11,278 bases of DNA from Candidatus Heimdallarchaeota archaeon (GTDB lineage Archaea > Asgardarchaeota > Heimdallarchaeia > Heimdallarchaeales > Heimdallarchaeaceae): positions 1-11,278 of the forward strand of contig DAOVER010000074.1 in assembly GCA_030668875.1 (NCBI GenBank). The letters run 5' to 3'. Shown here one piece after another: positions 881-11,055 of the stretch. The position numbers and the translations under genes were made by a program. Within the stretch, counting starts at the first letter, position 1. Every line of letters begins with the position of its first letter. The notes below the pieces were generated by a model, which was not told where the DNA came from, made no database searches, and was given only the letters and a program-made list of their open reading frames with translations.

Positions 881-1813
881 ATGCAAGAAGATGTAGAAGC
901 GGTTCTGGAGAGGCAAACTGTTATAGGAAAATTTCTAGACAGATTAAACTATCGTACACTTCGCCAGATATACACAATAATGAACAGTTTACTTAGTTCT
1001 ATAGACCGCTTTCTAAGTTCGAATGAAGATAGTTTACATAATATGAGATCAACTCTCCTATCTTCTATGTCACTTCTTGCTCGAACCTTTTATCAAACAT
1101 CAATAGTTGATTATCTACGGTCAGGAGGGAAAACTGAACGTGAGTTTAAAGAGGAAATCGAAAGAGCTTACTTGAAGGGAATGAATGAAAGGGAGCTAAT
1201 TGTTCAGAAGACGATAAATAATATGACCAGAGCAAATGAGTTGTTTAAGGTAAAAGAAGAAGTCAATAATAGGTGGCAAAATCTCTACTATCAAACCTCA
1301 CCAGAACTTAAAACAGAGCAAAACATTAGACAGAATCTATCCCTTGTTCTATCCAAACAAGATGAGTATAATGAATTATACAAGCCTAATATCTCAGAGT
1401 TAGAAGAATATCAAAACCAGAAAGATCTAATTAGCCAAGTCACTGATCTTTCCTACGAAGCAATAGATCTTGCAGATAAAGCTCAAATGACATTACACGA
1501 ACTATTAGATATCTGTATTAATCCTTTAGTTATGATTTTTGAGGACGAGATTAGTAGTGCAGAGAAAATCATAGCACAAATACAAATCGGAAATGAAAAA
1601 TCGAAGGATAAGTTAAGTGAAGATGAGATAGGGAAGTTGTGTGATGTGCTGTCTTGGGGGTTAGATGATATTAACAATTATGATGAATTGACTAGATTAG
1701 GAAAGGAATTAAGAAATGAGTTTGCCTCCTTGCTATCTGATTTTTTGGTTTATCTTGTTGATATTGACCTCGGTATTCAAGAACTAGAATCATTCCAATT
1801 AGAACGTGCATAA
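881..1813 (+). CDS. Hypothetical protein, 310 aa, predicted all-alpha/coiled-coil, soluble
   Basis: Long ORF with host-like composition, E/K/L/Q-rich with amphipathic helical patterning, no TM segment, no motif I recognise. Confidence 0.8.
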   Translation: MQEDVEAVLERQTVIGKFLDRLNYRTLRQIYTIMNSLLSSIDRFLSSNEDSLHNMRSTLLSSMSLLARTFYQTSIVDYLRSGGKTEREFKEEIERAYLKGMNERELIVQKTINNMTRANELFKVKEEVNNRWQNLYYQTSPELKTEQNIRQNLSLVLSKQDEYNELYKPNISELEEYQNQKDLISQVTDLSYEAIDLADKAQMTLHELLDICINPLVMIFEDEISSAEKIIAQIQIGNEKSKDKLSEDEIGKLCDVLSWGLDDINNYDELTRLGKELRNEFASLLSDFLVYLVDIDLGIQELESFQLERA

Positions 1814-1850
1814 TAGTGATATGTGTTTGAAGGAAGGATTTTTAATTCTA

Positions 1851-2360
1851 ATGAACAATGAAGAAGTAATGAGCTACGATTTGTTCCTTAGCAGAGACTA
1901 CATGATTTTTTCAAGTGCTCACTTCGTAGTAGGAGAAAAATTTATCGAATCCTTGCATGGTCATAATTATAAAATCCTCATCAATATTTATGGCAATCAG
2001 GATGAGGAGAATATGATCCTAAATTTCTATGATATAAAGAAAGTACTCAAGCCCATAGTTGATAGATTGGATCATAAGGTTCTAATCCCAGAAGATAACA
2101 AACAACTTGAAATCACGGTATCAGGAAAACAAGTAATCATCAAGGTATCTAATTATGATAAAGAGTATGAGTTTCCCAAATCTGATGTTATTATACTCCC
2201 AATTGAGAATACAACAGTAGAAGAAATAAGCCGTTACTTAGCTGATAAATTAATGTGGAACAAGGAGATTAAAAAAGAAAATATTGATCAAGTTACTGTA
2301 ACTGTTTTTGAGTATGAGGGACAAGGAGTGACCTTTGAATTATTTCCTAGATACGAATAG
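1851..2360 (+). CDS. 6-pyruvoyl-tetrahydropterin synthase/QueD-fold protein with PTPS-III-type motif (E-x-L-HGH, no catalytic Cys)
   Basis: FSSAH...ESLHGHNY, LDHKVL, NTTVEEI and terminal VTVFE motifs of the PTPS/QueD family. Start uncertain: GTG 1806 overlaps the upstream gene; ATG 1851 or 1869 is more likely. Confidence 0.88.
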   Translation: MNNEEVMSYDLFLSRDYMIFSSAHFVVGEKFIESLHGHNYKILINIYGNQDEENMILNFYDIKKVLKPIVDRLDHKVLIPEDNKQLEITVSGKQVIIKVSNYDKEYEFPKSDVIILPIENTTVEEISRYLADKLMWNKEIKKENIDQVTVTVFEYEGQGVTFELFPRYE

Positions 2361-2368
2361 GGTTTAGA

Positions 2369-3130
2369 TTAAACAGCATAATTTGATATTCTATTGTTTT
2401 TGTTTAAACACCAATTGATAATTGATTTTGCTATAGTGAACTTCTTTATTTTTCTTTCTAATTGAACTTGATTAATTTTAGAGGCTTTGGAATACTTTCC
2501 AATAGATTCACTAAAATCATATCCAATTAGATGGATAGAGTGTGCTTCAAAGTAAGTCGCTAAACAAATAGCTCTGTCTCCATCAGTGAATCCTAAGAAA
2601 TTGTAGGAACCCTGTAATGGATTGCCTTGAGTTGTAAAAACAAATTCTCCATCACTAAATGCTGTAATGTTCTCTTCAACGGTTTCAATATTATCCTCAT
2701 GCACATGAACCAATACTGTTGCGCCTCTGTTCTGAGCTTCTATTTGATCCTCGATTCTCCCATCTAAATCTGTAACTATTAAATCGGGTATAACATTCTG
2801 TGAGATAAGATATGACGTTGCCCCATCTGAGGAAATCATGAAATCAGCTTTAGTTTTATCTGACTTCAAATACAAGTCAAGCTCAGATTCTAGATATATC
2901 CCAGGAGCGATAGTAAGGATGTTTTTTCCCTTGATTTTCTGTTCTAGAACTTCCTTAGATATATTGCTTGTAAACTTTTGCAATATCCTTTGAAGTGCAT
3001 TAAGATCCCTTTTTTCATCTATATCCAGATATTCACATATCAAAGGGTACCATTTCTCTAACCAAATGGATAAGCTAAATTTGCTTTTTTCTAGATGAGA
3101 AAATGGAGAATTTTTTGTATTAAACATCAT
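2369..3130 (-). CDS. mptE: 6-hydroxymethyl-7,8-dihydropterin pyrophosphokinase (archaeal MptE, DUF115-type)
   Basis: Motifs SDGAT..L, PDLIVTDLDG, HVHEDN (canonical HAHGDN), TTQ..P, NFLGFTDGDRA (canonical NFGGFTDGDRA), LIGYDF. Confidence 0.88.
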   Translation of the reverse strand: MMFNTKNSPFSHLEKSKFSLSIWLEKWYPLICEYLDIDEKRDLNALQRILQKFTSNISKEVLEQKIKGKNILTIAPGIYLESELDLYLKSDKTKADFMISSDGATSYLISQNVIPDLIVTDLDGRIEDQIEAQNRGATVLVHVHEDNIETVEENITAFSDGEFVFTTQGNPLQGSYNFLGFTDGDRAICLATYFEAHSIHLIGYDFSESIGKYSKASKINQVQLERKIKKFTIAKSIINWCLNKNNRISNYAV

Positions 3131-4922
3131 CTTCTAATTCCTCTATAGTTACCTTGCGCTTACTTTGAAGTTCTGTAAGTGCATTTTCATAACAGTCTTC
3201 AATATCTCTGAAGGTTACGAGACCCACAACTTTCAAAGCGTCTTCTTTTGAAACTACAGGCAGATATTCGATGTGATAATCCGTTAGTTTATCAAAAACC
3301 GTAGACAGCGTTTCATCTTCATTAACCGTTATAACATTTCTAGTCATTGCTTCATGGATATACATTTTACTTCTCGCAAATCCGCTCTGAAAATCTGTTG
3401 CACTAATTATACCTGCAAGATTCTTTTCATCATCTATAACAACGATAGCACTAATTCTGTGTAGTTTTAGTAAGGAGTAGGATTCTTCAAGTAAATCATA
3501 ATGTTTTACTCTTGGAAATTTTGTTTTCATGGAATCTTTAACGTTGAGTGTTTCTAAAAGATCGGTATATTGAATCTTTCTTCGCAGTAAAATTTCCTTA
3601 CTTTCAATTTGTCCTCTATAAAGACTGAAATCCATTGAAATAATGAACGCCATAGTATTTGATAAGATGATTGGGATGACTAAATTTGGGAAACCCACCA
3701 TTTCAAGAACTAAAATCATGGAAGCAATTGGGGTTTTTGTGGTGGCTGTGTGCATTGTTGACATACCAACAACAATCAATGCTATTGCCAAGGTGTTGTC
3801 TAAATTAAATATACATGAATACAGAAAACCAAGTGCTGCTCCAGTTACCAGTGTTGGACCCATAACGCCTGCACTATTACCAAAACCAATACAAGTGGAC
3901 GTTACAAGAATTTTACCCAAGAGTAGAACCAGAACAAATTGTATGCTGATTTCACCAAAGTTATCTATTAAATGGTTTATTGAGTTAAAACCTATGCCTT
4001 CTAAAACAACGCCTTCAGGCATATAGAATGTATCAACGAAGAAAACAACAATTGCAGTTAACATCATTCCTATTAAAGGCAAGAGAAAAGCTTTGAGGTA
4101 TTTTGAAACCCATTCTGAGAAAAGTTTGAACAATAATGAGAACATGATGCCTAGAAAACCAGCAATAATACCTAGTAACAAGAAATGTAGAGAACTGGAG
4201 AAGGATAACTCAAATTGAATATTTCCTAGTTCTAGATAGATTGGAGTAGCAGAAAGAAAACTAATCGAAGAGATCAAATTTAGAAGAGAATCATAAATAA
4301 TAAGAGAGATAGCACTAGCAAGGAGAGCTGGAAGAAATACAGTTTCATCTAAGTCACGCTTATATGGAACTTCTGTAGCAAAGACTGTTCCACCTAGAGG
4401 AGCACGAAATACTGCTGCTGTACATGCTGCTGCACCAATAGTAATTGCGTGCATTTCATCTTCTTGAGTCATGCCAAATTTATCACCTATAACGGCTGAA
4501 GCTGTACTACCTATTGTAACAGAAGGACCTTCTCGTCCAGCTGGTGCACTTACTCCAAGAGTCATGATACTAGCAAAGAATTTCGTGAAAATTGTTCTTG
4601 GTTTCATAGGAGTGGTAGTATTCTTATGAGATAGAACATGGGATATACCAGCACCTTTAACCTCATTAAAACCCGCATATATGAGTAGACTTGTGATTCC
4701 TCCAACAAGAGGGTATTTTATGTAAATGGGTATAACTGTCAACCAATTCTGAAGATTTACTACTAAACTAGTAAATATTGCCATAATGATTCCACTGATT
4801 ATTCCAATAAGAATTGAGAATGGAAACCATTTTCGAGAATATTTCCAATATTTTCTTATTTGTCTCTTGAATCGATTCCGTAGCTGCATAGAATCTGTAG
4901 GTTTAAGTTTTTCTTCTGCCAC
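3120..4922 (-). CDS. CLC-family chloride channel/H+:anion antiporter with C-terminal CBS pair
   Basis: GAGIS (GSGIP-like), GREGP, FRAPLGG.VFATE, GVMGP and LYRGQI motifs; many TM helices; two CBS domains (DSMKTKFPRV..., EAMTRNVITV...). GTG start; 3' end overlaps the mptE start by 11 nt. Confidence 0.95.
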   Translation of the reverse strand: MAEEKLKPTDSMQLRNRFKRQIRKYWKYSRKWFPFSILIGIISGIIMAIFTSLVVNLQNWLTVIPIYIKYPLVGGITSLLIYAGFNEVKGAGISHVLSHKNTTTPMKPRTIFTKFFASIMTLGVSAPAGREGPSVTIGSTASAVIGDKFGMTQEDEMHAITIGAAACTAAVFRAPLGGTVFATEVPYKRDLDETVFLPALLASAISLIIYDSLLNLISSISFLSATPIYLELGNIQFELSFSSSLHFLLLGIIAGFLGIMFSLLFKLFSEWVSKYLKAFLLPLIGMMLTAIVVFFVDTFYMPEGVVLEGIGFNSINHLIDNFGEISIQFVLVLLLGKILVTSTCIGFGNSAGVMGPTLVTGAALGFLYSCIFNLDNTLAIALIVVGMSTMHTATTKTPIASMILVLEMVGFPNLVIPIILSNTMAFIISMDFSLYRGQIESKEILLRRKIQYTDLLETLNVKDSMKTKFPRVKHYDLLEESYSLLKLHRISAIVVIDDEKNLAGIISATDFQSGFARSKMYIHEAMTRNVITVNEDETLSTVFDKLTDYHIEYLPVVSKEDALKVVGLVTFRDIEDCYENALTELQSKRKVTIEELEDDV

Positions 4923-5151: not shown

Positions 5152-7302
5152 ATGATGATGATAGGATTAGTATTTGCTAAAAAGAAAAGCATGTTTTGTT
5201 TCATAATTTTTGTATTGTTTGCTTCTATAATGTTTAATCAAACACAAGTAGATTCATCTGTGTTGAATGAGAACAATTATTCTTCAGAATCACTAAAAAC
5301 AATATACATAGAAGATCAAAGCAGACAGATTTTCTTGCCTACTGATTATGAATATCCATATTCAACTTTAGTTCTTGATTTTAATGATGACAAAGTTCTG
5401 GAAACAGTTGTAGTAGGAACGATGAAAGAGAGTGTAGGGAAGGCGATATTCCTTATTCGGAATGAAAACATAGTCTCAGGATGGCCATTAGAACTTTATT
5501 GGGATGTAGATTATATTGAAATACTAGGAGAAGTAAGTCTACCAGGTGATCCTGATGAGGGGGTTGCTTTCCGCTACACAGAATTAATTGGAGATAATCC
5601 TCAAGAAACATTTTTCATAGTTACTGAAAATGGAGACATATATGCACCTTTTGGATTTACCTTACCTGGCTCTTTTGCGCCTGGAACCATTTTTCATGAT
5701 ATAAATGACGATGGAGATAAGGAGTTTATTATAGTTCGTACAGATGGTTACATATTTTCTTTGACAAGTGAAGGAAATAATATAACAAACTGGCCAATGC
5801 AAGTTAATGATTCTATAGTTTTCAATCAACCAGTAGTTGAGGATATCAATTATGATAATGAGTTTGATATCATTGTCTGTACAGATAGGGGGATGATATA
5901 TGCTTGGAATCAGAATGGGACATTAGTTGATAATTTTCCACGAAATCTCTCTCTATTCTATCCAGAGGATGAAGAGATAAGAACTATGCCTATTGTGGAT
6001 GATTTTGATAATGATGGGAAAATGGAACTTTTTGCAGCTTCGACATCTAGTTTTATTTATGGGATTTCACTTGACCCATATACTAACAAAACTTGGGATG
6101 CACCAATTCTAGCCAATGTTTACTATATTCAAGGAATTGCATATGATTTAGATAATGATGGAAAGAAAGAGGTTATTCAACAATCATCATACGGAATAAA
6201 TGTTTTCTCTGTCGGTTCAGAGTTGGAAGAAGTTTTTTCATTTTACAGCGAGGCGAATTTTTATGGCACACCAGCTGTAGCCGATATTGACGGGGATAAT
6301 TTTCCAGAAATTATTATTTCAAACAGTATCTATATCTATATTTTGGAACATGATGGACAAATAAAGGAACGAATAGATAGCTGGTTTCTCTATTCTGACC
6401 AGAACTCTCCTTTAATTTATGATATAGATAATGACAGAGAAGTAGAAATCGTACGATTAAGTCAGAGAGGGTTAATCCTTATTGAAGAAACAAATGATTA
6501 TGGGTTAGCTCCATGGATAGACATACTTGGTTCTTCAACTCATACAACAAATTTTGATCAAGACAACGATGGTCTCTGGGATCATGAAGAAGAGATTTTA
6601 GGAACAGACATGTACAATAGCGACTCTGATGGTGATACTGTAAATGATGGGGATGAAATTAATCAATATTTGCTGGATCCATTGGTTCCAGACATCGATA
6701 GCGATACAGATGAAGACGGAATTTCAAATATAGAAGAGATTGATATTTATCATTCAAATGTTGAGAACCCAGATACCGATTTTGATGGTTTAAACGACTG
6801 GGATGAGGTTAATGTATACAACACCAACTTGTTATCCTCTGACACTGATGAAGACGGTTTATCTGACGATTATGAGATTCTCTATGACTTTTTAGACCCC
6901 AATAATCCCGATGACGCTCTTCAAGATTATGACGAAGATAATCTAAGCAATCTAGACGAAAGAAGTTGGGGATGTGACCCTGGCAATCCAGATACAGATG
7001 GTGACGGCTTATTAGATGGGGATGAAGTAAAACGCTACTTCACAAATCCACTATTTAGTGATGCAGAAGCAGATTATGATGGAGATGGCCTCACTAATGT
7101 AGAAGAAGTAGATATTCATGGGACAGATCCTTCGAACCCAGATACGGATGGGGATGGTTATGATGATGGGGTTGAGGTTGAGAATGGTTCTGATCCTCTT
7201 GATGAAAATAGTATCCCAACAGATACAGCCTCTTTCTACTTTGTAGGATTAGTTTTGGTTGTTCCTGTAATTGGAGTAATTTACAGAAAATTAAAGAGAT
7301 AA
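5152..7302 (+). CDS. Cell-surface Ca2+-binding protein: signal/TM N-terminus, FG-GAP/VCBS-like beta-propeller, TSP3-like repeats, C-terminal TM plus basic tail
   Basis: KKK plus hydrophobic N-terminus; seven D-x-[DN]-x-D-x-x-x-[ED] loops; nine D-x-D-x-D-[GTN] repeats; ends FYFVGLVLVVPVIGVIYRKLKR. Confidence 0.9.
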   Translation: MMMIGLVFAKKKSMFCFIIFVLFASIMFNQTQVDSSVLNENNYSSESLKTIYIEDQSRQIFLPTDYEYPYSTLVLDFNDDKVLETVVVGTMKESVGKAIFLIRNENIVSGWPLELYWDVDYIEILGEVSLPGDPDEGVAFRYTELIGDNPQETFFIVTENGDIYAPFGFTLPGSFAPGTIFHDINDDGDKEFIIVRTDGYIFSLTSEGNNITNWPMQVNDSIVFNQPVVEDINYDNEFDIIVCTDRGMIYAWNQNGTLVDNFPRNLSLFYPEDEEIRTMPIVDDFDNDGKMELFAASTSSFIYGISLDPYTNKTWDAPILANVYYIQGIAYDLDNDGKKEVIQQSSYGINVFSVGSELEEVFSFYSEANFYGTPAVADIDGDNFPEIIISNSIYIYILEHDGQIKERIDSWFLYSDQNSPLIYDIDNDREVEIVRLSQRGLILIEETNDYGLAPWIDILGSSTHTTNFDQDNDGLWDHEEEILGTDMYNSDSDGDTVNDGDEINQYLLDPLVPDIDSDTDEDGISNIEEIDIYHSNVENPDTDFDGLNDWDEVNVYNTNLLSSDTDEDGLSDDYEILYDFLDPNNPDDALQDYDEDNLSNLDERSWGCDPGNPDTDGDGLLDGDEVKRYFTNPLFSDAEADYDGDGLTNVEEVDIHGTDPSNPDTDGDGYDDGVEVENGSDPLDENSIPTDTASFYFVGLVLVVPVIGVIYRKLKR
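5374..6453 (+). repeat. Seven FG-GAP/VCBS-like Ca2+-loop repeats (protein level)
   Basis: LDFNDDKVLE, HDINDDGDKE, EDINYDNEFD, DDFDNDGKME, YDLDNDGKKE, ADIDGDNFPE, YDIDNDREVE, each followed by a hydrophobic strand. Confidence 0.8.
6556..7203 (+). repeat. Nine bacterial thrombospondin type-3-like repeats (protein level)
   Basis: DQDNDG, DSDGDT, DTDEDG, DTDFDG, DTDEDG, DYDEDN, DTDGDG, DYDGDG, DTDGDG, each followed by L-x-[DN]-x-x-E and a T[DN]P-like element. Confidence 0.85.
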
Positions 7303-7344: not shown

Positions 7345-7791
7345 ATGAAATGCCCTTATTGTGGTTATCTTAAACCGAAGCAGAAGAAGGATTCTTTCAA
7401 GATGTATACATGCCCTCGATGTGATTATCTTTTTGAAGTTCCAACAGGAGAGACTATTCTTGATAAAATTCTATCTATTCCTTTCTCTTCAATTATCTAT
7501 ACACCTTTTATTCTAACAATTAATTATTTTATCGCACATTTTACCTATAGTGAAGGACTATTTGATTTTGGTATGCTTCTAGCTTTCCACATACTGATGT
7601 CGATGTTTTCTATTCTCTTCATTCTCTACATAACAACACGAGGGAGCGACCAAATTTTTATAGTCAAAAAGAGAAGTAGTAAAAACCTCTTACATAGAAT
7701 TAGAGACATCTCTCCTCTTATTAAAATAACAGTCTTGCTTGGTATAGCAATGATCATCGTGCCCTTTGTTTTACACCAGAGATTATTCTAA
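7345..7791 (+). CDS. Hypothetical membrane protein with N-terminal Zn ribbon (CPYC-x16-CPRC) and about 3 TM helices
   Basis: Two CxxC pairs in the first 26 aa and three hydrophobic segments; starts 42 nt after the upstream gene in the same direction. Confidence 0.8.
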   Translation: MKCPYCGYLKPKQKKDSFKMYTCPRCDYLFEVPTGETILDKILSIPFSSIIYTPFILTINYFIAHFTYSEGLFDFGMLLAFHILMSMFSILFILYITTRGSDQIFIVKKRSSKNLLHRIRDISPLIKITVLLGIAMIIVPFVLHQRLF

Positions 7792-7894: not shown

Positions 7895-7923
7895 AAAAAG
7901 AAAAAGAAAAAGAAAAGAAAAAG
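7895..7923 (-). terminator. Archaeal oligo-T terminator tract (minus strand CTTTTT-CTTTT-(CTTTTT)3)
   Basis: Begins within 2 nt of the SBP stop codon; mirrors the tract at 751-775. Confidence 0.7.
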
Positions 7924-7924
7924 A

Positions 7925-9868
7925 TTATTTCTTTTTGCGGTATAATGCTACGAAAGCTGCTGCACCGATAGCTGCGAGGATACCAAACAATGGAACTGGT
8001 ACTCCAGGTATTGTAATTTCGTATCCAGCTGCGGTTAGCCATTCTACTGCGGCATCAAGATCGCGGTTGTATTTGATAATGTCGTTGTAGTAGTAGTATG
8101 CAGTAAATGGATAGATTACACTGTGGGAGATTAAGTACTCACCATCATGAATAACCTGGTTTATCTCGTCACGATCGACAGCATAGTTTATAGCTTTACG
8201 AACTGCACAACCCTTAGTGTATTCTTGTTTTCCAGGAGCGGTAAGATATTCAAAGTTATCAACACCACCGACGAAAGGTCTGCGCAAATTCATAAACATG
8301 AAGGTGAAGCTTGCAGTTAAGAAACTTTGTACTTCAAATCTTGGATCTGCTTGCATTTGCTTTCTTTCAGATGGGAAGGCAGTTAGACCAGTCCAGTCTA
8401 ATTTACCGGCTTTGAATTCTGCTAATTCTGCTGAAATATCAGGAATAACACGAACATTGAATGTTTCGATGTCTAGATCTTGCTCAGTTCCGTCAATGAT
8501 ACCAATGCCCATCCAGAATGGACTAGCTTGTAATACAGTAACGGAGTTCTTGATGTAATAATCTAACATATATTTTCCACAACCAAAGGCGGATGTAGAG
8601 TAATATACCCAAGCATCACTGTCTAGAATTCCAGTGTAGAAACCTGTACATTCGGCTCCACCAGATGTGTATGAGACAGTAGGATCTGAGGAATTCAAGA
8701 AGAATTCAGGTAGAATTTCCCAAGGTAGTCTGGCCCAAAAGTCGACGTATTGTTCAATTTCTGGGGTTAATGGGTTTCCATCAATTTCGATATGGAAGGA
8801 TAGCTCATCTACTGGGTCAACATATGCTGCTGAAATCCAGTTATGATAAGATGGACTTTCACTAACGATTGAGTTTGCCCATGCAAGATAGGTAAAGACT
8901 GCGTCTTTAGCTGTAACCTGTTGATTCTCACCATCACTAAATCTGTCTTCACCTACTTCATCTTTTAGACCATTCATTAATTGGGTAGTAGCAGGATCAA
9001 GTGCTGCAGAACTAGCATCTCTGCCAGTAACGTTGTATGATGGATTCCAGAATACTTTATCTCTCATAGTAAATTTGAAGTGGAATTCGTCAATTTGTTC
9101 CCAATCTGTAACTAATGAAGTTTTGAGTGGGGCCAAATCAGGACTCCAACCAACAATTGATTCAGCCATTAAGCCGAATATGAAAGAGCTGGATGTATCA
9201 TCTGTTTGTAGTGGGTTCAAATCTCTCCAGTTAGCGTCAGCTACACTGAATTCAGTAAGTGAGTCTTGACCTTCATGTAATCCATCGTATTCGATGTATG
9301 GTAAGGAATCAATTATTCCCCAACGACCATCATAACCGAGTGTGTTTGCCCATGTAGCAACGTATGACCTTGGTGCGAATAATGGTAGCATTGGAACGAT
9401 TTTGTCCATCATCAACTGCTGCCAATCATAGTAGTGTTGTTGTCTTTGTTCAAGATCAACTATGGTAACACCTTCAATTTGCATGTTCTCGCTTTTGTTT
9501 CCGTATGGCATTTCTTTGGTAATTCCGTACATGTTTAGTGAACCATCAGCACCATAACAATCGTACATGTCTGGTGAGGATCCACCGCCAGCTAAACCGA
9601 CTACACCTAGGTCAAAGTCTCTTGTTAATAGCAGAGTTCCAATGAACACTGTCCATTCTTCGACTTTAACTTCTACTTCAATTCCAATCTCTCTTAAGTA
9701 CTGAGCAATGTATAAACCATAGTCAGGTCGGACACCACCGCCGTTAGTCTTGAAGACTAAATTTGCGAGGGGTTCAACAGCTGCCTGTGAGTTATTTGCA
9801 TTAAATGCACTCATAGCTAGTAGGCTAGAAAGAATGAAGAGTGTAAAAATTACTGTTTTTTTCTTCAT
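7925..9868 (-). CDS. Family-5 (OppA/DppA/NikA-like) ABC solute-binding protein, apparently circularly permuted; N-terminal signal peptide, C-terminal TM anchor plus RKKK
   Basis: Family-5 motifs: LNPL..DD.SS, LVTDWE, FKFTMRD, VTAKDAVFT, FGCGKY, VRVIPD.SAELAEFKAGKLD, FMNLRRP, VRKAINYAVDRDEI, D...A..WL.AAGY, plus IAQYLREIGIEVEV and VPMLPLF. The last two normally lie at the C-terminus but are N-terminal here. Confidence 0.92.
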   Translation of the reverse strand: MKKKTVIFTLFILSSLLAMSAFNANNSQAAVEPLANLVFKTNGGGVRPDYGLYIAQYLREIGIEVEVKVEEWTVFIGTLLLTRDFDLGVVGLAGGGSSPDMYDCYGADGSLNMYGITKEMPYGNKSENMQIEGVTIVDLEQRQQHYYDWQQLMMDKIVPMLPLFAPRSYVATWANTLGYDGRWGIIDSLPYIEYDGLHEGQDSLTEFSVADANWRDLNPLQTDDTSSSFIFGLMAESIVGWSPDLAPLKTSLVTDWEQIDEFHFKFTMRDKVFWNPSYNVTGRDASSAALDPATTQLMNGLKDEVGEDRFSDGENQQVTAKDAVFTYLAWANSIVSESPSYHNWISAAYVDPVDELSFHIEIDGNPLTPEIEQYVDFWARLPWEILPEFFLNSSDPTVSYTSGGAECTGFYTGILDSDAWVYYSTSAFGCGKYMLDYYIKNSVTVLQASPFWMGIGIIDGTEQDLDIETFNVRVIPDISAELAEFKAGKLDWTGLTAFPSERKQMQADPRFEVQSFLTASFTFMFMNLRRPFVGGVDNFEYLTAPGKQEYTKGCAVRKAINYAVDRDEINQVIHDGEYLISHSVIYPFTAYYYYNDIIKYNRDLDAAVEWLTAAGYEITIPGVPVPLFGILAAIGAAAFVALYRKKK

Positions 9869-9873
9869 TTAAT

Positions 9874-9879
9874 ATCACC
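9874..9879 (-). promoter_or_regulatory. Shine-Dalgarno GGTGAT for the SBP gene
   Basis: GGTGAT lies 5 nt upstream of ATG 9868 in a 20-nt intergenic gap, supporting co-transcription with 9889..11055. Confidence 0.75.
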
Positions 9880-9888
9880 AATATTTTA

Positions 9889-11055
9889 TTATTTTCTCTT
9901 ACGCACAAATGCGTAACTAACTAGCCCGAGCATTGAGACACTTATAAGTATACCGAAGCCCATTCCTACTCCATCTGCTTCTTCGCCGACAAATACTCTC
10001 ATAACGGCTAAGTCATGACCAACTGCTGGTGCTGCTTCTCCGTATAATTGTGCATAGTCATCAAGTTTGTTTCCAAACAGATTGAAGAATATGAAGTTTT
10101 GTCCTTTCTTTAAAGGTGCGATAGTAGTTGTCATGTTGTTCCAATCAGCATCGTTCACATACCACATGTATGTCAACATTCCCATTGTATTCATTGCTAC
10201 ATAGTTTGATCCATAAGATCCATCAAACAATTCTATTGGATTGTTTGAAGCGTTATAGTTTACGTAAACTTCTGTTACAACTGGATCGCCTTCTAGAGCG
10301 ACAGGTATAGTTTGATATACTGGAGTTGCTGCTTCTGCTACAGGTCTTGGATTGTCTGCCCATTCATTCCACTCATAATATTGTCCTAAATCTTCAGAAT
10401 TAACAGCTGTTGCTACTAATTCTACTTCATTGTATAGGGCGTCTTCAATAAGTGGTGGGACATCTGATCTGTCTTCTGCTACGTAAAAGACAACTTGATC
10501 TTTTGCGTATTCCCAATGGAATTCAGTGTGATTCGCATCGGATACCATTTCTGCGGCTACAACTGTTAGATAATGCCATCCAACTGCTAATTTTAACCTG
10601 ATTTCTTGATAATTTCCATTATCTTCATCAAGCCAAAAGTTGGACATACCTAGGTCATAATCATCAAGCATCAGATTAAACATACCAGCGTATCTGGTGG
10701 TGTTATATAGGTCTGAGCCGGTATAACCTTCGGAAGCATTGTTTTGTGGTTCATAGAACCATGTATCGGTTTGCCATCCATTACCAAGTGTATATAGGTA
10801 GGATGCCCAAGCGATAACAGCTACGTCATAGAAAAATGCAAAGTGAAGAACGTCTTCTGTTGTAAATACATCATTATCTCCGATAAATCTTGTATCAAAT
10901 TCAACATAAACATTATCACTTGGAACCCAAGCTGATGGAATATAATCGATTGTGATTTCGACTTTATTGTCACCTTGTTCCGCATTTGTCAATGCAACAG
11001 CACTAACGGTTGATACTACAAAAAGGAATAGAAAAATTAGTCCTTTTTTATTCAT
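9889..11055 (-). CDS. Hypothetical secreted, C-terminally anchored surface protein (388 aa), beta-rich, possibly two tandem Ig-like domains
   Basis: MNKK plus hydrophobic signal peptide; acidic, aromatic-rich body; ends GMGFGILISVSMLGLVSYAFVRKRK. Confidence 0.85.
   Translation of the reverse strand: MNKKGLIFLFLFVVSTVSAVALTNAEQGDNKVEITIDYIPSAWVPSDNVYVEFDTRFIGDNDVFTTEDVLHFAFFYDVAVIAWASYLYTLGNGWQTDTWFYEPQNNASEGYTGSDLYNTTRYAGMFNLMLDDYDLGMSNFWLDEDNGNYQEIRLKLAVGWHYLTVVAAEMVSDANHTEFHWEYAKDQVVFYVAEDRSDVPPLIEDALYNEVELVATAVNSEDLGQYYEWNEWADNPRPVAEAATPVYQTIPVALEGDPVVTEVYVNYNASNNPIELFDGSYGSNYVAMNTMGMLTYMWYVNDADWNNMTTTIAPLKKGQNFIFFNLFGNKLDDYAQLYGEAAPAVGHDLAVMRVFVGEEADGVGMGFGILISVSMLGLVSYAFVRKRK

Follow-up and report, generated by a model that had tools for sequence, protein, structure and literature searches.

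Organization of the locus

The window analyzed here is the whole 11,278-nucleotide contig DAOVER010000074.1 (C26), which belongs to the 3.23-Mb, 99-contig draft genome of a Candidatus Heimdallarchaeota archaeon (assembly GCA_030668875.1), with closest relatives labeled Candidatus Heimdallarchaeaceae. Its central feature is a leftwards-transcribed gene for a family-5 solute-binding protein (SBP_bac_5, PF00496), which translates in the list of open reading frames (ORFs) to 647 amino acids plus a stop codon, protein P0001. The protein is almost certainly a true circular permutant of the cluster C (OppA/DppA-type) binding proteins, with the canonical C-terminal third, here called segment A, placed in front of the canonical N-terminal part, segment B. 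The coordinates of the gene, its parts, its neighbors and related genes elsewhere are given in Table 1.

The mature chain begins with segment A, made up of the latter half of lobe 2 (domain III), the second of the two hinge crossings and the strand that closes domain I. Segment B then supplies domain I itself, the extra domain II, the first of the hinge crossings and the initial part of lobe 2. The signal peptide, read from the sequence, lacks a lipobox cysteine, and residues 3–26 form a low-confidence helix in the predicted structure. At the other end, the chain stops in domain III at the equivalent of residue ~345 of mature DppA (helix ...LKEAGL in DppA, ...LTAAGY in P0001), with a membrane helix about 8–13 residues later and a basic, cytoplasmic tail after it; a helix and basic tail of the same type are present in all 39 aligned homologues. 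The tail scores 13.8 bits with the Heimdall-CTERM model (NF045529; cut-off 24) and 10.3 bits with the Loki-CTERM model (NF033507; cut-off 19.9), below threshold in both cases, and is best taken as an ordinary membrane helix that ends in basic residues.

Table 1. Coordinates of the permuted gene, its parts, its neighbors and related genes on other contigs. Positions without a contig name are those of the window.
Feature	Position	Strand	Basis or remark
Permuted family-5 solute-binding protein gene, whole	7925..9868	-	ORF list, PF00496 match, dN/dS
Signal peptide, residues 1-30 (basic start, hydrophobic core, ...SQA|A)	9779..9868	-	Sequence reading; cleavage site inferred
Segment A, residues 31-200, canonical C-terminal third	9269..9778	-	phmmer, PF00496, fold alignment
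Junction, residues 201-204, former native C- and N-termini joined	9257..9268	-	Alignment ranges
Segment B, residues 205-621, canonical residues 1-345	8006..9256	-	Ends ...WLTAAGY
Subfamily insert, residues 276-308, between VFWN and FSDG	8945..9043	-	Alignment breaks
C-terminal anchor on lobe 2: tether (residues 622-626), membrane helix (627-646), RKKK tail	7928..8005	-	DSSP helix
Upstream partner P0273, 388 residues, secreted, C-terminally anchored	9889..11055	-	20 nucleotides upstream of the binding-protein gene
3' remnant of a duplicated gene, matching residues 444-647 at 82% identity	136..750	+	No 5' part, no signal peptide
PTPS-family protein	1806-2360	+	Neighbor
MptE-like pterin diphosphokinase	2369-3130	-	Neighbor
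CLC channel with CBS domains	3120-4922	-	Neighbor
716-residue FG-GAP / bacterial TSP3-repeat surface protein	5152-7302	+	Neighbor
148-residue protein, N-terminal CxxC...CxxC motif, hydrophobic stretches	7345-7791	+	Neighbor
OppB-LVIVD fusion	C38:13555-16167 = L090:4555-7167	-	Opp operon without binding-protein gene
Lobe-2-only protein	G000 contig C22:51578-52603 = L094:7578-8603	-	Segment content
Second-type permuted copies, genome G255	C1:3939194-3940921, C1:1205460-1207112, C1:4009750-4011336		PF00496 coordinates

Chain order of the binding protein

An earlier note on this DNA had proposed that the motifs of the protein are swapped relative to OppA and DppA, and all four sequence comparisons return non-colinear matches. 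PF00496 scores 125.2 bits (gathering cut-off 32.4) using only profile positions 28–281 of 368, on residues 309–619; the remaining positions 287–356 match nucleotides 9563–9778, which encode residues 31–102 at the front of the same ORF. This is the outcome the note had expected of such a search, with the end of the profile on the front of the ORF and its start and middle on the rear. Searched with phmmer against all PDB sequences, P0001 matches Bacillus subtilis AppA (1xoc) with a whole-protein expectation value (E) of 1.6e-9 in three pieces, the best of which pairs residues 38–179 with AppA 363–502 (domain E 4e-6); the others pair residues 538–619 with AppA 265–347 and residues 309–329 with AppA 91–109. 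The NCBIfam model Opp4A likewise places its positions 416–533 of 556 on residues 53–171. A profile hidden Markov model (HMM) built from 39 family members and run against Escherichia coli DppA (from NC_000913.3) aligns in four pieces: profile positions 54–179, 220–275, 453–528 and 535–615 correspond to DppA 396–519, 46–102, 227–302 and 291–370, respectively. The pieces are non-colinear and their E-values far beyond chance, and the order is therefore swapped.

Two AlphaFold models, of the full chain and of the N-terminal piece alone, were compared with solved structures. When the full model is aligned sequentially with Foldseek and VIA, only residues 191–621 are covered and 31–190 stay unaligned; as a sequential aligner cannot place the first ~170 residues, residues 31–204 were folded and searched alone. 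The lone fold has a predicted local distance difference test (pLDDT) score of 84, and all 50 of its listed matches are family-5 binding proteins, each matched on its C-terminal third, including DppA 340–507 (8z1z, 368–535 in precursor numbering) and AppA 350–519. Together the DppA ranges 1–345 and 340–507 account for the whole parent chain, with an overlap of a few residues where it is cut, and DppA residue 507 aligns near residue 200 of P0001 with DppA residue 1 at 205, in a junction region where the full model has a pLDDT of 94–95. The swapped segment matches, the tiled parent chain and the joined parent termini are those of a natural circular permutant, and the two alpha/beta lobes with an extra domain, superposable on solved members, are those of the cluster C fold.

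Sequence searches, Pfam coordinates and the comparison of AlphaFold models with solved structures confirm a single cut, after the helix ending AAGY. The two-lobed 'Venus flytrap' fold is kept; what has changed is where the chain starts and ends, and hence which lobe is tied to the membrane. With the cut inside lobe 2, both hinge crossings appear, from the alignment ranges, to have been kept.

The architecture sketched in the earlier note is borne out throughout, subject to corrections of detail. The segment it assigned to the canonical C-terminus (residues ~37–180) extends over residues 31–200 by sequence and by fold, and the canonical N-terminus restarts where it had placed it, at residue ~205, to which DppA residue 1 aligns. 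Its view that the chain was opened after AAGY and the native termini joined agrees with the positions of mature DppA ~345 at the chain end and of 507 and 1 near residues 200 and 205, and the membrane tether has moved to the other lobe as suggested, the C-terminal helix following lobe 2. The linker it drew at residues 181–204 needs revision: there is a real junction, but it takes up only a few residues, and the rest of that stretch is mostly canonical C-terminal tail.

Distribution of the permuted family

The permuted order is shared by a large set of homologues. A word-indexed search returned at least 309 at 90% clustering, all 54–87% identical and about 640–660 residues long, and all those with a named source are from Heimdall archaea. 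An exhaustive search of 1.84 billion cluster representatives (50% clustering) gave 697 at E ≤ 1e-3 and 107 at E ≤ 1e-30, with representatives colinear with the permuted query. Models of the two segments matched 273 of 276 fetched proteins, which have the order A-B (229), A-B-A-B (one) or a single segment only (43); the plain B-A order is absent among the 273.

Judged by PF00496, a single copy in this genome is canonical (contig C3, profile positions 2–343), against at least 15 with the permuted cut. The permuted copies stop at profile position ~276–297, and have either the profile end upstream or the block equivalent to DppA ~306–367 directly before the C-terminal anchor. In the closed genome of Candidatus Heimdallarchaeum endolithica PR6 (G074), all eight further, more divergent copies that were mapped have the same order and end, and there is no full-profile PF00496 match in the two closed Heimdallarchaeum genomes. 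It is because of the permuted order that a Pfam match to such a protein ends at profile position ~281.

Among 300 genomes of the phylum, strong colinear matches are present in all 27 of this family and all 11 of a second family, and profile coordinates place the same cut in three more Asgard families, for at least five families overall. A closed 4.4-Mb Asgard genome of another family (G212) has canonical-order copies only. With the same cut in several Asgard families and canonical copies in another, the permutation is old and shared, but not universal in the phylum. The earlier note had called the architecture a family trait, and the many intact paralogs and orthologs with the same cut agree with this.

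Bacterial proteins of the same order were sought with a more canonical-looking H. endolithica copy, and among the 120 matches listed only Heimdall proteins appeared. In the ESM Atlas, the full model aligns over 488 residues (residues 32–621) with a bacterial SBP_bac_5 cluster of 547 residues and 102 members, whose commonest phylum is Pseudomonadota, with template modeling (TM) scores of 0.67/0.79; the cluster is a candidate for a bacterial protein of the same order.

Several derivatives of the permuted form occur in the collection. The single A-B-A-B protein, P0166 (1,772 residues), consists of two permuted binding proteins in tandem and is the kind of intermediate that could lead to further permutation. 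A lobe-2-only family of 294–345 residues consists of segment A and the last ~100 residues of segment B, that is, domain III alone, preceded by a signal peptide or an N-terminal helix and followed by a membrane anchor at the C-terminus; apart from the example in Table 1 its members include P0155, P0168, P0180, P0190, P0191, P0198, P0213, P0237 and P0251. This form of deletion is possible only because of the permuted order. A second permutation of the same fold is found in a closed 4.9-Mb Asgard genome of the same class (G255), where the cut lies near profile position 142, so that PF00496 positions ~143–358 come first and 2–141 second in one ORF; copies with the AAGY-type cut are present beside it in the same genome.

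P0001 and its close relatives also have an insert in the canonical motif (...GVKWHDN... in DppA, ...KFHDG... in AppA), with VFWN ending at residue 275 and RFSDG beginning at 309. In the full model its pLDDT is 94–97 over residues 271–300 and drops to 74 at 301–310; the insert is conserved in the subfamily and holds a conserved N-x-T sequon. In more distant permuted relatives, HMM positions 72–107 (36 positions) are replaced by about 8 residues, and the insert is thus a later addition in this subfamily. The insert of about 35 residues described earlier for this motif is therefore real, at ~33 residues (276–308), but belongs to a Heimdallarchaeaceae subfamily rather than to the family as a whole.

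Neighboring genes

The gene directly upstream encodes P0273, a protein with a signal peptide, several N-x-S/T sequons and a C-terminal helix and basic tail like those of P0001. It has no Pfam or NCBIfam match, and protein atlas scores reach only 0.76. Homologues of P0273 lie directly upstream of the binding-protein gene in 24 of the fetched related loci, including those of both closed Heimdallarchaeum genomes, and also in L099–L101, and P0273 is the only conserved partner of this binding-protein subfamily. Complex predictions for P0001 residues 31–621 with P0273 residues 25–362, made with alignments, gave runs scoring 0.51, 0.00 and 0.00, which speak neither for nor against binding.

Near the left end of the window, the earlier note had placed a paralog at about positions 136–750 with the same ending as P0001. 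The ending is indeed the same, AAGY followed by tether, helix and basic tail, but this is a truncated 3' remnant and not an intact paralog. The frame upstream of it has stops, and orthologous loci on long contigs carry the same remnant in the same place with a 1-nucleotide insertion, a 2-nucleotide deletion and a 1-nucleotide deletion; it is a decaying partial duplicate, neither an assembly break nor a working paralog. As the copy is a dead fragment, the argument for a family trait stands on the intact paralogs and orthologs.

Among the other genes in the window, those for the MptE-like and PTPS-family proteins point to archaeal pterin synthesis. In relatives (L099:3089-8643), the region just upstream of the gene pair encodes an M20 peptidase and two Ras/Arf/Roc-type small GTPases; the window ends before this region.

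Selection, transcription and codon usage

The ratio of nonsynonymous to synonymous substitution rates (dN/dS) was calculated against five orthologs at 81–87% and one at 66% protein identity; in a seventh comparison, with an ortholog at 71%, dS is saturated. Over the six, dN/dS is 0.15–0.22 for the whole gene and 0.08–0.20 for segment A, and residues 183–204, which hold the junction, give 0.02–0.17 against the close orthologs. The permuted gene is under purifying selection and is a real working gene. Orthologous loci on contigs of 144–239 kb have the same gene order.

In a metatranscriptome of one sample (four runs), contigs 90–97% identical to the window cover positions 7897–10904, which correspond to the binding-protein gene and the upstream gene, and almost nothing else in the window, though the relatives are syntenic there. 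For relatives and a single sample only, this is a hint that the gene pair is transcribed much more than its neighbors.

Among about 2,300 ORFs, the binding-protein gene is at the 99.3rd percentile for the share of C-ending codons and the 136–750 remnant at the 99.0th, and both have a guanine-plus-cytosine content of 0.40 against about 0.33 around them. Many of the top-ranked ORFs resemble foreign, GC-rich repeats, and aEF1A ranks at the 86th percentile, with aEF1A and the thermosomes together spanning the 72nd–86th. Codon usage was dropped as a proxy for expression because aEF1A and the thermosomes rank no higher than this.

Transporter context and alternative explanations

For every copy of the binding protein in this genome, the surrounding 10 kb on either side are free of BPD_transp_1 permease genes, the nearest being 16 kb away on contig C36. 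The same holds for the orthologous loci and for the two closed genomes, in which the nearest such permeases are 11–16 kb away and not of the Opp type. Opp/Dpp-type importer operons are nevertheless encoded here without a binding-protein gene, and comprise OppB, OppC and two ATPases with an oligo_HPY domain (contig C38); the equivalent H. endolithica operons likewise have none, and their OppB counterpart is extended (573 residues). Translocators of this genome that lack a binding-protein gene are located at C38:13555-10352 and C52:5439-3356. We note that the OppB-type permease on C38 (870 residues) is fused to an N-terminal LVIVD-repeat beta-propeller.

Opp-type importers require a binding protein. 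On this requirement in Opp/Dpp-type importers see also PMC12136057. Since the operons contain no such gene and all mapped H. endolithica copies are permuted, the permuted copies should, by elimination, be the partners. By this elimination, we lean slightly towards the view that the product of this gene binds a solute at the cell surface and passes it on to an Opp/Dpp-type ATP-binding cassette (ABC) importer encoded elsewhere.

The solute is unlikely to be bound as a peptide is in DppA or OppA. In DppA, D436 (precursor numbering) forms a salt bridge with the alpha-amino group of the peptide, the roles of D436 and R383 being described in PMC12136057. D436 aligns with G95 of P0001, and glycine occupies this position in at least 90% of the 39 family members; no counterpart of R383 could be placed in the alignment. 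The replacement of D436 by a near-invariant glycine is what makes classical peptide binding of the DppA/OppA style unlikely. Family-5 proteins also bind nickel chelates, opines and oligosaccharides, according to the PDB titles of the structure matches.

Taken as one reading, a permutant that captures solute at the surface and feeds it to an Opp/Dpp-type importer is what we regard as probable, and several observations weigh against it. Support for the transporter role is indirect: no permease gene adjoins the binding-protein gene, the aspartate of classical peptide binding is absent, and the sole conserved neighbor is a surface protein without a known family and not a component of a transporter. 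The RNA contigs derive from a single sample and from relatives of this strain, and the canonical three-dimensional position of segment A is inferred only from its complementarity to the rest of the chain and from the confident full model. Two explanations deny the permutation itself. In one, which we consider highly improbable, an unrelated N-terminal domain was added to a C-terminally truncated binding protein. It would account for the sequential aligner covering residues 191–621 only, but residues 31–200 match the canonical C-terminal third by sequence and by fold, and they are exactly the elements that the truncated part lacks; the earlier note had named this possibility as one that would refute a permutation, and the matches contradict it. 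In the other, the order would be an artefact of assembly or gene calling, from a chimeric contig or two fused genes. The contig is short (11.3 kb, from a 99-contig draft) and has a truncated copy at its edge, but the architecture recurs on contigs as long as 3.3 Mb, two closed genomes among them, the synteny is conserved, and purifying selection acts across the junction; we give this explanation next to no credence.

The weightier alternative accepts the permutant and takes it to be no longer a transporter part, acting instead as an abundant surface receptor, adhesin or coat protein with the 388-residue partner. All the permuted copies are orphans, with no permease nearby, and the pairing with an anchored surface protein is kept in 24 related loci, down to about 51% identity of the binding protein. 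The coverage of just this gene pair by RNA-library contigs, the 99.3rd-percentile codon use and the loss of the D436 equivalent all point the same way, as does the strong expansion of the family, with lobe-2-only derivatives that are unable to form a binding cleft. Moreover, of the proteins detected in the cultured Asgard archaeon P. syntrophicum, a family-5 binding protein far exceeds all others in abundance, and no surface-layer (S-layer) protein was found (PMC11284389). Set against these points, some of the permuted proteins must serve transport if the importers work, as these need a binding protein and the mapped H. endolithica copies are all permuted. The fold is fully retained with both lobes conserved, and the codon signal is unvalidated, with aEF1A only at the 86th percentile. 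A purely surface role is the less likely explanation, and one that partly overlaps with solute capture for an importer, since a dual role is possible.

Origin and implications

In canonical archaeal family-5 proteins the binding domain is preceded by a signal peptide and followed by a membrane anchor (compare PMC11284389). An ancestral archaeal gene of this layout, encoding signal peptide, binding protein and C-terminal anchor, may have undergone tandem duplication and in-frame fusion; loss of the front part of the first copy and of the rear part of the second would then have left the order signal peptide, segment A, segment B, anchor. By this route the signal peptide would stay in front and the anchor behind. 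The A-B-A-B protein P0166 indicates that in-frame tandem fusions do occur in this family.

Heimdallarchaeia appear to rely for nutrient capture at the cell surface on a rewired receptor, with genes that are not coupled to those of the transporters, and one permuted subfamily is a candidate for an abundant surface protein. A wider proposal, which we offer as speculation, is that the permuted form has replaced the canonical one throughout the Heimdallarchaeia family-5 repertoire, and that the P0273-paired, apparently very highly expressed subfamily is both a major component of the cell surface layer and a nutrient receptor. Were this so, chain ends in lobe 2 would be an adaptation that allows very short C-terminal tethering, the permutation would have made possible both the lobe-2-only anchored proteins and the tandem A-B-A-B proteins, and the surface layer concerned would be that of close relatives of eukaryotes.

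Comparison with known binding proteins

Substrate-binding proteins, divided into clusters A–G, are among the best-classified folds, and circular permutants of them have been widely engineered for biosensors. A natural, lineage-wide, strongly conserved permutant of the large cluster C proteins shows that lobe 2 can be cut without loss of the fold, and it provides a ready-made scaffold with termini in a new place.

P0001 belongs to the same Pfam family as E. coli DppA (1dpe, 1dpp, 8z1z), B. subtilis AppA (1xoc), OppA and NikA/NikZ. It differs from these canonical cluster C proteins in its order, swapped at mature DppA ~340–345, with termini in lobe 2 and not in domain I; in its anchor, a C-terminal membrane helix on a very short tether; in the 33-residue insert of its subfamily in domain I/II; in the replacement of D436 by glycine; and in having its gene outside a transporter operon. 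Within the archaea, DSAG12_03090 of P. syntrophicum is a dominant glycosylated family-5 protein of very high abundance (PMC11284389); it shares with P0001 the family, the signal peptide and the C-terminal membrane anchor.

No natural permuted cluster C protein was found in the literature search, whose coverage left out most subscription journals, and the only natural permuted ABC binding protein found in the literature searched is Tp0684 (TpMglB-2) of T. pallidum, of cluster B. It was proposed as 'Type Ic / Cluster Bc' and described as a natural circular permutant that binds ligand and closes (PMC4990184). Its own permutation moved three N-lobe strands to the C-terminus and added a fourth hinge crossing. 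TpMglB-2 is bacterial, an MglB-like sugar binder and a lipoprotein rather than a protein anchored by a membrane helix, but like P0001 it is a permuted, membrane-tethered binding protein of the ABC type. Its authors, in proposing the 'c' sub-class, noted that such proteins tend to be tethered and that tethering is a possible reason for the permutation (PMC4990184).

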